From NCBI GenBank assembly GCA_000165345.1, contig CM000433.1, positions 416,001-480,000 on the forward strand: a stretch of DNA of 64,000 nt, written 5' to 3'. The notes below the pieces were generated by a model. It was not told the DNA's origin. It saw nothing but the letters and a program-made list of their open reading frames with translations, and ran no database searches. The position numbers and the translations under genes were made by a program. Below, in pieces: positions 27,125-48,013 of the stretch. Position 1 is the first letter of the stretch, and the number at the start of each line of letters is the position of its first letter.

Positions 27125-27526
27125 TTTTTTTAATCAAACAACAAGCTTTTCTAGAAAGATCAATACACAATGCGCAATGTTCCCTTCCTGTTACTAGATA
27201 TATACCTTTGCGCACATAAACAAGGAAGCAGATAACCTCTTTCAAAAATTCTTTGATTTTTGTTGGAATTTAAATTGATTTTTATGTCGTATCGAGTAGT
27301 CTAAAAAAAAAAAAAAATCATGGCCCGCCTTAAGCAGGCCGCTCGAGTTAATTAATTATAATATTTTTACCTAGTGCGCTTTCAGATAACTGAATCAAAG
27401 TAGAAATTTTCGTAGATAATACAGAAAAATCCGAAATAATCATTCTAGGATAATAGAAGAATAGACTAATTGTTAATTAGCAAATTAACTTTCTTTTTTC
27501 TGTCATGTTTTTATTATCAAAACTAT

Positions 27527-27538
27527 TGCATGCATGCA
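27527..27538. promoter_or_regulatory. TGCATGCATGCA dodecamer (ApiAP2-type motif) in the helicase/HEAT-protein divergent promoter
   Basis: Exact palindromic dodecamer, 400 bp upstream of the ATG at 27937. The identical 12-mer recurs at 33534..33545 and 47871..47882, and shorter TGCATGCA copies lie at 13237..13245 and 49481..49488. Confidence 0.45.
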
Positions 27539-27936
27539 CATACTTGTAGTTGCCGGAATGTCAGTGGCGCTAACAGTCATTCATATTTTTGTTTTGAAAA
27601 TGTGGGGGCAATCAAAAAAAAAATTGATTTTATGGCGTGTGCACGAAATGAACGATTTCTTCTAATAAATTCTTTTAATAGTTTCTTGAATTCTTTAGAA
27701 GGACTTTCATTTAAACACTTGGAGAAAGAGTAAATTTGTTGTGGAGTGCTCTTTCTGAGGTTTTAATAACTAAAGGAGGTTTAAGTTTCTGCTATAAGTA
27801 TTTATATAAATAATTGGGAATTTGGTCAGAAATTGGTTTGCATGAAAGAAAATTTCTCAAGAGAACAGGGTTTAGAAGCTTTGAATCTGAGAGTAGTGAT
27901 CAGTAATTAAGAGTTTTAAATGAAGTTTTCCTAAAG

Positions 27937-30900
27937 ATGGAGCTTCCAAGCCAATTGAAAAAGAGTAACGCATGCACAATTATGAATGACAACAATGAAC
28001 AAACTAATAAAACCGATGCAAATTGGAAAAGAAGACCATCTTCAAATAAAGGAACGGAGCATTTCACAGCAATTTTTGATGTACTATTACAGGATAAAGC
28101 TCCGAAATTATCAGAATTTAATAAGATGAATCTTAAAAAAGTACAATTAGAAATTTCTAAATTTGACAACCAAATACTTCATGAGTTTTGTGGAAGAATT
28201 GAATTTAGCAGAAATTGTGAAGCATTATTGGAAGAAATATTGTGCTCAGACTTAATTATCGAGTTTGGAAAGAGAATTTCTTCAAAAGATAGAGGAAAGG
28301 GCTCGGAAAACGTTCTAATAGAAAACTTAGTAAATGTGATTAATATTGTTGGGATATTTTTATACTTTGAATTGGTTATTTTCAATGAAATGACATTTAG
28401 TAAAGAAATTAGAATTATTTCTAATATAATAAGAAGCGTACTGCCAATAATATTTTCGGAAAGCATTAAGAATTGCCGTTTGGAAGCTTTTAATACGTCT
28501 TTTATTGGCTGCCTGGAAGCGATAAATACAATTGTAAGAACAAAAAGTATTCATGAGATATTTTCAACACAAATTATTGTTGGTTTGCTTTCAATTTTTT
28601 TGATAGAGGATTCAAATACTATGGTTGTATTTCTCACGACGGAAATAGTTGTTCATTTATTTGTTTCTGGATCATTGAATTCTAATGAGTTCTTGGAAAA
28701 TTCCTTAAATTTAATTTTTGATGTGATGGAAGAATTACCTCATACTAACAAGGCAATCAAGAAAGCAAAAGTCTGCATTGAAATGGACTCATATATGCAT
28801 ATTTATGTATATTTATTACTGAGACTTATACAAAGTATTTGCATCCCAAATGGAATAGTTTCTAGTGACAACATTCACTCGATACAAAATATTTCAATGA
28901 AACATCATAATTTGGCAAAATTCATATGCAACCAGTTTGCAACGTTTTTTATCAATTCTATTATTTTAAAGAGAACAAAGAGAAAAGAAAGTAACTTCTC
29001 AACAGGAAATGACATTGCAACAGTTATCCTTACGGATTTACTCAAAGCATCATTTAATCCAAAATATAATATATGCTCAACTATTACTCAAATCATTATA
29101 GTACAGTTAATTAAGATTTCAAATAACTCATTAATTAATGAGGCTGGCCCAAAATCACAATCAATAAATATTGACTTGTACTCAAAAGAGCTTTGCATAC
29201 ACCTGTTAGGCGCATCACTTTCAATAATTTACAAGAATGTTAATGTAAAACTTATGTGCATTGATTCATCTGAAAAGAGCATTGATGAAAGTAAATCAGA
29301 AATAAAAGATGCCCAAATTGAAAGAGATGATGCAACAAACAACGTTATAATTGATTGTATATGTGATAAATTGTACTCAATATATACCGAGAAATTACTA
29401 AGATGCGAAAGTTGTGGTAGGAACTTTCATCTTGATTGCATACGGAATGGCACATATTTGGAGATATACGAACAATGGAAATGCGATAGCTGCACCATAA
29501 ATTTAATATTTGATGAAATAAACATGAATTTTGGGATTAATGGAGAAGAAATATTATCAAAAAATTCAGAATTAACCGTAGTATTAATAATAGTGCTTGA
29601 ATATCTTTACAGGAAAACTGCAATGACAGTGTCTCAGGCTTCATCTGAGCCAGTTACTATCGATATAACACAATTAGTTACTGATTCTGGAAGTTCAGTA
29701 GCATGCTCATTTATTTTGGAAATGATTGCAAAACTAAAGCTTGGAAATAAAAATTTAGAAAAAGCAGATGGAAAAGAAGAGTCTAAAAATAAAACAACCA
29801 AAAATGGAAGCAGAAAATTGTCTCAAACATGTAATGAAATAAGCCAATTATATACAATGTTATTAACTGAATGGGTTTCTCCAATTACAAAGGTGCACTC
29901 ACCATTAATAGCTTATTCCTCAAAATTTCCAAAGTTACTGGAAGCAAATGTAATTAGGTTTTGGAATAGAATACTAGCTAAAGAATTGAAGAATGTTGCG
30001 AATATTATATTACACTGCTTATTATCAAATATATATAATTCAACTATTACTTCAATGAGAAGAATATCTTTGAATTCAGTGGGCCAAATAATTTCAGTAA
30101 AACCCAATCTTTTGATCACTAATGAAACAGTTTTAAACGCAATAATATTATCTCTAAAGGATAAAACTCCAAAAGTTAGAGAGAGAGCTCTAGCAATAAT
30201 TGAAAAGTACTTTTCTGATATATTAACTAATGAAACTTCAGATTTTACCTATGATGGAGAGAATTCAAAAATTGTTTTTGATAGAGTGACCAAATTACTG
30301 TTGGAGCAAATTTTTAGAACAGCATATGACATCTCTCCTTTAGTTAGGATGACCTCAGTAAGGATTCTCAGAGCTTTATATCAACATGATCCATCAAAGT
30401 TGAATATTGGCATTATATTATTAAAAAGGGCATCTGCAGTTGAGGAAACACAATCAATAAGAAGGTTGATTTTTGATTCATTTACTTCTATTTGGTTTCA
30501 CAATTCAAGCAAAGTAAATGAAAGTATGGCAGAGTGCCTAGTTAAACTTATAAACTATTCGGAGAGCAATGAATTCCTTCAATATATTAACCACGACCAA
30601 AAAAGCACAAACTGCTTGCTGAAAGGTGTAATGTCTATTTTACAAGAAAATCAATCAATAAAAAACTTGGAAGCATTAATTACTAGATGGTCTAATATAC
30701 TCGTTGATATGTTTATTCAAAGCGATAACTACCGAGATACGATCAAATCTGAAAAATTAGTTTCTGAAGAAATTGGGTTAAAAAATGAACAATTAAATGA
30801 TCAAGGTATTGCAAACAACAATTCATCCAGGGATTTTTCGGAAACAAAACTTCAAATATTAAAAACAGCTGAAGTTATTGGTAAAGTTTATCCGAAATCT

Positions 30901-46633: not shown

Positions 46634-47695
46634 ATGGATTTATTTTGGCATAAATTTACTTGTAGTATATTATTGCTTATATCTGCTATACTTGGATATT
46701 TCTTTCCAGCTAAGATTGATAATGATGAGAAGAATAAGGGACGTAAAAGCAAGATTCTTCCAATTATGACTGCTTTTGGAGCAGGAGCTTTTATTGCACT
46801 GGCACTTGTTCATCTCATTCCAGACGCAATAGAAGATTCAAGCTCTGGATTATTGTCTTTTAAAATAGCAGGCATTGAGGTTAATTGTGTTTGCCATTTA
46901 ATTTTGTTGGGTTTCTTATTTTCGATAATTTTTGAGAGTATTGCTGATGAGTATTTTGGGTCAAATGGAATACATGGTCATAGCCACACTAGGCATAACA
47001 CAGATTCTAATCATATGAAAGATAACATAAACTCCAATATGATGAGTACTAACGTCTCATCCGAGTATTCATCAGATGAAGATTCATGTATTATTGATAA
47101 ATTTGGCACAGATTTAACAGCTGGTAGGGAAAATTCATCGTTATGCATATCTGGTTCAATTAATAAAAACCCAACATTATCATCAAAGAAAGCCAGAGTA
47201 AATTTGGCAGAGAATGATAATGGATTGAAGGCAGAATTAGGCAAAAGCTCAGTTGGATTTGTTTTGGTTTGTGCATTATTCTTCCATTCTCTATTTGAAG
47301 GTATGGTTGTTGGAACTTCAAAAAGTATTATGGGCACTTGGATGATTACCTGCGTTATTTTTGCTCATAAGTGGATTGAAATTTTAATTGTATATATGAC
47401 TCTTATTTCAAAGGGCATTAACCCTTTGGCTTACATTATTATTCTTTCTTTTGGATCACCTTTAGGCGCAATGATTGGAGCCATTGTTATTATCTCAAAT
47501 TCAGTTGCATCAGCTGTTTGTTCAGCTCTTGCAGCAGGGACAATACTTTATGTTGCTTGTATTGAAGTTATACCAGATGTTTTTAATGACAAGCACTCAA
47601 TCCGCACTCTTATAAAGTTAGGATCTTTTGTTACTGGGATTCTAACTGTTTCTACGATTACCTTAGTTAGCGAAATAGTAGAGAATTCTTATTAA
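46634..47695 (+). CDS. ZIP-family (SLC39-like) zinc/iron permease, 353 aa
   Basis: Multiple predicted TM helices. A His-rich cytosolic loop (GIHGHSHTRHN) and the motifs HSLFEGMVVG and AAGTILYVA fit the ZIP signature region. Confidence 0.75.
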   Translation: MDLFWHKFTCSILLLISAILGYFFPAKIDNDEKNKGRKSKILPIMTAFGAGAFIALALVHLIPDAIEDSSSGLLSFKIAGIEVNCVCHLILLGFLFSIIFESIADEYFGSNGIHGHSHTRHNTDSNHMKDNINSNMMSTNVSSEYSSDEDSCIIDKFGTDLTAGRENSSLCISGSINKNPTLSSKKARVNLAENDNGLKAELGKSSVGFVLVCALFFHSLFEGMVVGTSKSIMGTWMITCVIFAHKWIEILIVYMTLISKGINPLAYIIILSFGSPLGAMIGAIVIISNSVASAVCSALAAGTILYVACIEVIPDVFNDKHSIRTLIKLGSFVTGILTVSTITLVSEIVENSY

Positions 47696-47870
47696 ACGTT
47701 AATGGTTCTTGGTTTAATTTTTTTGATTCTCTTTTGTTCAATTGGCCACTTCTAATAAATACGTTCTATTCAGAGTTGGCTCCTACTTTTACTTCAATTC
47801 AAATTTGTTTATTTAAAATTTAATCACTTAAAATTTTACAATCTCCCGCATCTTCTATGTAGCGTTTTCT

Positions 47871-47882
47871 TGCATGCATGCA
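47871..47882. promoter_or_regulatory. TGCATGCATGCA dodecamer upstream of the EF-hand gene
   Basis: Exact copy 132 bp upstream of the ATG at 48014. Confidence 0.45.
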
Positions 47883-48013
47883 ACAATTAATTCATGTGGA
47901 CAAATAAATTAAGAGGGAAATAATTTAAAAGAATAAGAGGACAAATTAATGGCTTAATAAAAATTTATATTTATTTATGTAAAGTAGATTTTTGGACCCG
48001 AATTTTTTATATA

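Follow-up and report, generated by a model that had tools for sequence, protein, structure and literature searches.

Three identical palindromic dodecamers on Cryptosporidium parvum chromosome 5, held in position in at least six species, are probable promoter elements of the AP2_1 class

A 64-kb stretch of Cryptosporidium parvum chromosome 5 (contig CM000433.1, positions 416,001 to 480,000; hereafter the window) contains exactly three copies of the palindromic dodecamer TGCATGCATGCA, located at 27527-27538 (site 1), 33534-33545 (site 2) and 47871-47882 (site 3). This raises the question of what kind of element the dodecamer represents. We consider it probable that the three copies act as promoter cis-elements for TGCAT-binding ApiAP2 factors and represent the known AP2_1 class in a longer version composed of two octamers. 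The copies are kept at the same promoter positions in at least six Cryptosporidium species.

Each dodecamer consists of three TGCA units and comprises two exact octamers, TGCATGCA, with a 4-bp overlap. The initial annotation of the window held the three copies to be non-random, which is borne out by 100 dinucleotide-preserving shuffles of the window, as not a single copy of TGCATGCATGCA was present in any of them. The octamer is found at seven start positions, corresponding to four loci (the three dodecamers and a single octamer at 49481-49488), whereas the shuffled sequences had 1.05 on average and at most 4. One of two additional octamers claimed at the outset, that at 49481, is thus exact, but the other, at 13237, was misread: the sequence in that position is aCGCATGCATGt, i.e. 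GCATGCAT, which is shifted by one base from the TGCATGCA register. The variant cGCATGCAt at 13236-13244 fits the degenerate consensus BGCATGCAH, not TGCATGCA. In agreement with the intergenic placement given in the initial annotation, all dodecamer, octamer and variant sites lie outside open reading frames (ORFs) and annotated genes, and all window copies sit in intergenic regions having at least one gene 5' end. At least five promoter regions of the window bear the AP2_1 motif or a variant of its consensus. While (TGCA)3 is present at three separate loci, the only other tetranucleotide triples in the window belong to one (ATTT)n array and one (TTTC)3 locus, so there is no general tendency towards tetranucleotide arrays.

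The 812-bp intergenic region that contains site 1 separates two divergent genes; the site is at its centre, with 403 nt to the ATG of the helicase gene cgd5_2070 and 410 nt to that of a Nipped-B/PHD gene. Sites 2 and 3 are found between tandem plus-strand genes: site 2 lies 186 nt past the Nipped-B stop codon and 367 nt ahead of the start codon of an FCH/F-BAR gene, and site 3 lies 176 nt past the stop codon of a ZIP transporter gene and 143 nt ahead of the start codon of an EF-hand gene. The original description of each dodecamer as lying upstream of a plus-strand gene is therefore true but incomplete, since site 1 is also upstream of the minus-strand helicase gene. The single octamer at 49481 lies 112 nt ahead of a small gene with an intron, which starts with the ATG at 49593 and whose orthologues encode 105-114 amino acids, and the variant at 13236 is found about 237 nt before the PITH/'thioredoxin' gene cgd5_2030, which starts at 13474.

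The octamer was reportedly first described by Bankier in 2003, as being over-represented in C. parvum non-coding DNA. Under the name AP2_1 (BGCATGCAH), the motif was recovered by MEME, AlignACE and FIRE upstream of 55 co-expression clusters comprising 1,034 genes with differing profiles, and its octamer is bound on protein-binding microarrays by cgd2_3490, cgd1_3520, cgd8_3230 and cgd5_4250 (PMC3734150, PMC4117751, PMC12246861). The initial recognition of the dodecamer as an over-represented apicomplexan upstream motif with ApiAP2 binding is in line with these published data. cgd2_3490 is the orthologue of Plasmodium PF14_0633/AP2-Sp, and cgd1_3520 has a dual specificity for TGCAT and the G-box. 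Transcripts of the four binders peak at different times, and the authors of the source concluded that no single motif accounts for the C. parvum expression clusters. The sites described here resemble AP2_1 (Bankier 2003; Oberstaller 2013, 2014) with respect to organism, core, palindromy, restriction to upstream non-coding DNA and frequent G-box-like or E2F-like company. On the other hand, the published motif is an 8-9-mer while the present element is a 12-mer of two overlapping octamers, and earlier comparisons were confined to C. hominis, in which intergenic DNA is 95% identical, while seven further species are considered here. A full-text literature search for the 12-mer yielded no apicomplexan paper, the matches being unrelated primers or oligonucleotides, and the 12-mer appears not to have been singled out as a class within the searchable literature. 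The element is nevertheless an instance of an already known kind in a well-studied genome and is largely ordinary; what is added is modest, namely the deep conservation of its position and 12-nt length class, and its recurrent pairing with a ATGTGGACA or G-box-like box.

Orthologous loci of approximately 15-22 kb each were retrieved from C. meleagridis, C. ubiquitum, C. canis, C. felis, C. xiaoi, C. ryanae and C. muris (11 loci from seven further species), using the FCH and ZIP proteins as anchors. Identity of the anchor proteins to those of C. parvum ranges from 92% down to 35%, and the FCH proteins of species that keep the site are 58-92% identical. Gene order is kept in all fetched species with the sole exception of C. 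muris at site 1, where the DDX60-like and Nipped-B genes are separated by a gene encoding an SNF2/RING helicase (596-3811 of the retrieved locus, L009) and the corresponding region lacks TGCATG. Because of this intervening gene, C. muris has no divergent promoter of the site 1 type.

In every intestinal species fetched for a given site, the element is present at the same position. At site 1, the 12-mer is found in five of six species (C. parvum, C. meleagridis, C. canis, C. xiaoi and C. felis, in the last of which it is lengthened to 14 nt), and the sixth, C. ubiquitum, retains 11 of the 12 bases (cGCATGCATGCA). Site 2 carries the 12-mer in four species (C. parvum, C. meleagridis, C. ubiquitum and C. 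canis) and shorter forms of 8-10 nt in a further two, namely a 10-mer, TGCATGCATG, in C. xiaoi and an 8-mer in C. felis. At site 3, three species (C. parvum, C. meleagridis and C. canis) have the 12-mer and three others 8-10 nt: the 10-mer aCATGCATGCA in C. ubiquitum and an 8-mer in both C. felis and C. ryanae. At 49481, an 8-mer is found in C. parvum, C. meleagridis, C. ubiquitum, C. felis and C. ryanae, and C. canis has a degenerate version, TGCATGtA. For C. xiaoi only sites 1 and 2 were fetched, and for C. ryanae only site 3 and the 49481 site. In C. muris, two CATGCATG copies are found at site 2 and two TGCATG copies, 11 nt apart, at site 3. Spacing is likewise preserved: in all species with the site, 394-414 nt separate the site 1 element from either flanking ATG, and the site 3 element is 128-155 nt from the EF-hand ATG and 164-247 nt from the upstream stop codon.

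Intergenic conservation was scored in 12-nt windows on MAFFT alignments. The element falls within the best-conserved 0.5-3% of these, with higher scores reached by 4 of 801 windows at site 1, 16 of 541 at site 2 and 5 of 307 at site 3. In the five-species alignment of site 1, 11 of the 12 columns are invariant, and GCATGCATGCA (11 nt) constitutes the joint second-longest invariant run. At site 3, where mean column identity is 39%, TGCATG is the only invariant run in an alignment of seven species, and at the 49481 site TGCATG.AAA is the longest invariant stretch in six species. Across the window and the 11 loci, representing eight species, TGCATGCA starts 0 times in approximately 171 kb of coding DNA and 32 times in approximately 49 kb of non-coding DNA, orthologous copies being non-independent. 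As judged from these alignments, the cross-species pattern shows that the element is under purifying selection, as is its full 12-nt length at most of the promoters. Moreover, the length class is stable and site-specific, because at 49481 four other species likewise have an octamer and nothing longer, C. canis having the degenerate form. A GCATGCA at 27970, within the Nipped-B coding sequence, is common only to C. meleagridis and was discarded as a chance occurrence.

Each of the elements is accompanied by further conserved boxes. Site 1 forms the upstream edge of a block of approximately 130 bp with hardly any variation among five species. Within this block lies a 27-nt imperfect palindrome with a GGCGC core, GAATGTCAGTGGCGCTAACAGTCATTC (27556-27582), whose invariant run of 15 nt in five species is the longest in the site 1 intergenic alignment and which may be a site for an E2F-like or dimeric factor. 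It is followed by a G-box-type box, ATGTGGGGG (27600-27608, plus strand), located 61 nt downstream of site 1, of which TGTGGGGG is invariant in five species and which fits the published Motif 2, DTGTGGGG. The distal end of the block is marked by an 11-nt invariant run, TATGGCGTGTG (27631-27641, plus strand), that includes GTGTGC, the reverse complement of the published AP2_2 motif GCACAC.

Sites 2 and 3 have a different companion, ATGTGGACA, which occurs in the window in two copies only, each pointing to the downstream gene. One copy (33548-33556, plus strand) lies 2 nt downstream of site 2; its ATGTGGA is identical in six species, C. muris among them, and makes up the longest invariant run between the two genes. 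The other (47894-47902, plus strand) is found 11 nt downstream of site 3; TTATGTGGACAA is conserved there in five species, and C. ryanae has a displaced CATGTGGACAAAT. Both sites also share AGAGGAC downstream, and ATGTGGACA and AGAGGAC are in the same order at the two. At the single octamer, a G-box-type box, TCCCCACAT (reverse complement ATGTGGGGA; 49394-49402, minus strand), lies 78 nt upstream, with its CCCCACA core present in six of six species. A second box, ATGCCGGCA (49460-49468), with a palindromic GCCGGC core, precedes the octamer by approximately 20 nt, and its CCGGCA is kept in five of six species, C. ryanae being the exception.

Pairing and extended form were also evaluated by re-counting Table S3 of PMC7840661, which gives the motifs upstream of 396 C. 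parvum long non-coding RNAs (lncRNAs) and in which AP2_1 is, over the first 100 nt upstream, among the two leading motifs. The partner box corresponds to Motif5 of that table, TTGTCCACATK (reverse complement CATGTGGACAA), which is present in both orientations upstream of mapped lncRNA 5' ends. Of 18 upstream regions with Motif5, 11 also contain AP2_1, compared with 55 of 396 overall (hypergeometric P = 2e-6). Three of the 29 NNNTGCATGCA instances in the table read GCATGCATGCA, compared with an expected frequency of about 0.9% (P = 0.002). On the basis of these counts, both the extended form and the box pairing recur elsewhere in the genome. The box 2-11 nt downstream of dodecamers 2 and 3 is also similar to A[T/A]G[T/A]GGA.A, an unnamed motif of the class II oocyst-wall (COWP) genes that was found alongside AP2_1. 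Thus AP2_1 accompanies the box in both sources, but pairing, spacing and conservation are discussed in neither paper. Variants of the partner box partly grade into the G-box (CCCCACAT).

A mechanism can be proposed in which the element, preceding start codons by 140-410 bp in the promoter region, would be docked by one or two AP2 domains, the candidates being cgd2_3490, cgd1_3520, cgd8_3230 and cgd5_4250. The extra TGCA unit would offer a second binding register, possibly allowing higher occupancy or a dimer. The bound factor would then cooperate with factors on the oriented ATGTGGACA or ATGTGGGG (G-box-like) box, on GGCGC (E2F-like) cores and on GTGTGC, and together these factors would set the timing of transcription of the adjacent gene. 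Since the site is palindromic, a gene on either side may be served and, given the equal distance to two ATGs, both genes at site 1. We thereby infer binding in vivo, a benefit of the third TGCA unit and an effect on transcription. A more specific proposal is that the 12-mer is a distinct, selectively maintained AP2_1 class which, together with the oriented ATGTGGACA or G-box-like box, makes up a composite module, conserved through the intestinal clade and degenerate in C. muris. We put this forward tentatively, with odds somewhat below even; the reader of such a module might be cgd1_3520, with its dual specificity, or an AP2 dimer.

Several points weigh against these proposals. The designation of the sites as putative promoter elements draws on position and conservation. 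AP2 binding was established in vitro and for the octamer only, and nothing sets a reading of the 12-mer apart. The third TGCA unit appears dispensable in C. felis, C. ryanae and C. xiaoi, which have just 8-10 nt at sites 2 or 3, and in C. muris, TGCATG half-sites are all that is present at sites 2 and 3, while site 1 lacks even these. Furthermore, the pairing is less pronounced (P = 0.003) when the 190 motif-bearing lncRNAs serve as background, and the table statistics come from lncRNA upstream regions rather than mRNA promoters.

Formally, the 12-mer is three tetranucleotide units, the number of which varies slightly between species, from 2 to 3.5, and could thus be a functionless chance occurrence or a (TGCA)n microsatellite produced by replication slippage. 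None of these copies is expected by chance, other GC-containing tetranucleotide triples do not recur at a second locus, the octamer is absent from the coding DNA compared, and site 2 is identical, without any variation in length, in four independent C. parvum assemblies or read sets. Chance and neutral slippage are excluded because position, register and length class are conserved while the surrounding intergenic DNA has diverged to 39-62% column identity; this explanation is effectively refuted by the cross-species data and retains a negligible probability. The presence of the same exact 12-mer at all three sites, together with the similarity of the promoters at sites 2 and 3 (ATGTGGACA and AGAGGAC in the same order), could also point to a specific regulon, as suggested in the initial annotation, in which the Nipped-B/PHD, F-BAR and EF-hand genes are co-regulated by one factor recognizing the 12-mer. 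We consider this unlikely. With 1,034 genes of differing profiles downstream of AP2_1, the motif is not specific to such a set, and it is bound by at least four ApiAP2 proteins with different expression peaks. Site 1 has different neighbours (palindrome, G-box and GTGTGC) and could equally serve the divergent helicase gene, the three gene functions are unrelated (a cohesin loader, a membrane-bending protein and a calcium-binding protein), and a fourth and fifth gene of the window carry the 8-mer or its variant.

The stop codons upstream of sites 2 and 3 leave room for an element acting at the RNA level, in which UGCAUGCAUGCA in a 5' or 3' untranslated region (UTR) would be bound by an RNA-binding protein controlling stability, translation or 3'-end formation; UTR boundaries of C. 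parvum are, in addition, poorly defined, since intergenic distances average 504 bp. Site 1, however, lies between two 5' ends with no 3' end near, and at site 3 the downstream ATG is found at a less variable distance than the upstream stop codon. The motif is also found at most 100 nt upstream of mapped lncRNA 5' ends, where the partner box has both orientations as expected of a DNA site, and direct DNA binding by AP2 domains is documented. An Rfam scan of the whole window gave no match at the gathering score, and a scan of the site 1 intergenic region with an E-value threshold returned only a sub-threshold bacterial small RNA (21.5 bits against 100), taken as chance. Altogether, an RNA-level function seems very improbable. 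A bidirectional start region, in which the palindrome would also drive antisense lncRNAs over the 3' end of the upstream gene (Nipped-B or ZIP), is compatible with an AP2_1 promoter element and carries a small probability, slightly above that of the regulon. Most of the 396 lncRNAs, upstream of which AP2_1 is one of the two leading motifs, are antisense and biased to gene 3' ends, bidirectional promoters have been proposed in the literature, and sites 2 and 3 have exactly such a geometry, but the conserved downstream boxes are oriented to the plus-strand gene only. None of the published C. parvum lncRNAs was found to map to the window.

The interpretation of the dodecamers as AP2_1 promoter elements can be set beside related systems. 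The Plasmodium PfAP2-Sp/PF14_0633 site upstream of sporozoite genes has an identical octamer, TGCATGCA, but there one factor directs a sporozoite-stage programme, in contrast to the approximately 1,000 genes and four candidate binders in C. parvum. In Toxoplasma gondii, the gCATGCa/TRP-2 motif is found in 44% of transcription start site (TSS) windows, peaking approximately 82 nt upstream of the TSS in a nucleosome-depleted region. It has the same core and behaves as a general promoter element, consistent with the picture in C. parvum; it differs in being present at ribosomal-protein promoters, as C. parvum ribosomal genes have motifs resembling E2F and GAGA. The plant RY repeat (CATGCATG), recognized by B3-domain factors, shares the core, but belongs to another kingdom and another DNA-binding fold and is a resemblance only.

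How Cryptosporidium regulates its genes is poorly understood, and functional support exists for few cis-elements. The present analysis delimits three promoter modules and one octamer module, with base-level conservation maps that can be used for reporter or CRISPR (clustered regularly interspaced short palindromic repeats) mutagenesis. It also offers two testable refinements, i.e. that selection keeps the third TGCA unit at particular promoters and that AP2_1 sites preferentially pair with a ATGTGGACA or G-box-like box. If both were true, they would help to explain how differing expression outputs arise from a common motif with four redundant binders.

The apicomplexan origin deduced in the initial annotation is confirmed by exact protein matches to C. 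parvum. The 681-residue FCH protein (33901-35946, plus strand; cgd5_2090 by position) is identical in chromosome-scale records from three C. parvum assemblies, e.g. GCA_015245375.1 (CP044418.1, 468,715-476,760), and six more window proteins match C. parvum Iowa II or IOWA-ATCC proteins exactly. The window covers chromosome 5 from cgd5_2010 onwards, with gene numbers increasing along the plus strand; the genes at 9504, 11901 and 13474 correspond to cgd5_2010, cgd5_2020 and cgd5_2030. Its GC content is approximately 30%, and long, intron-poor ORFs account for approximately 75% of the sequence. The gene labels given initially are broadly right. The Nipped-B/Scc2-like gene with a PHD finger (27937-33348, plus strand; cgd5_2080 by position), originally called the HEAT/PHD gene, encodes a product with a Nipped-B_C match above threshold and a sub-threshold PHD match, the FCH match of the F-BAR gene is above threshold, and the spliced EF-hand gene (48014-48612, plus strand; 149 amino acids in orthologues) has an EF-hand_6 match of 27.7 bits (cutoff 25). 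The divergent neighbour that has site 1 in common, cgd5_2070 (20753-27124, minus strand), encodes a DDX60-like SKI-family helicase. In the co-expression table of PMC3734150, cgd5_2070 is assigned to cluster 20 and cgd5_2030 to cluster 63.

Identifiers around the ZIP gene require care, as GenBank locus tags of the form CPATCC_00222x are not equivalent to CryptoDB identifiers of the form CPATCC_00222x0. The ZIP gene is GenBank CPATCC_002223, but Cp_lnc_205, the antisense lncRNA listed for CryptoDB CPATCC_0022230 and at first taken as antisense to the ZIP gene, was rejected, its sequence being absent from the window. The k-means cluster numbers that PMC7840661 gives under such identifiers were discarded for the same reason.

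Additional features were noted in the intergenic region of site 1. Just downstream of the dodecamer, GCCGGAAT (27552-27559) is a counterpart to the ATGCCGGCA box near the 49481 octamer. On the helicase side, a second conserved block extends over 27200-27350 and is probably the helicase promoter or 5' leader. It contains TATGTCGTATCGAGTAGTCT, which is kept in four of five aligned species with only its TCG and TAGTCT invariant, and an invariant E2F-like CCCGCCT at 27324-27330. On the opposite side, five species share an invariant AAATG at 27918-27922. It precedes the annotated Nipped-B start codon by 17 nt, in a different reading frame, and may represent either a conserved upstream ATG or a sign that this start is misannotated.

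Elsewhere in the window, a 1,610-residue ORF on the minus strand (51230-56062) has approximately 1,100 C-terminal residues made up of about 110 tandem KKDAPAAPPA-type repeats (A 26%, P 22%, K 15%). It has no Pfam match, and its orthologues range from 1,533 residues in C. meleagridis to 1,672 in C. ubiquitum. These repeats are responsible for a jump in GC content to 57% at 52-54 kb and for a spurious antisense ORF of 1,140 residues. Finally, an (ATTT)n microsatellite of approximately 10 units is located at 59039-59080, in the intergenic region ahead of the gene at 59146.

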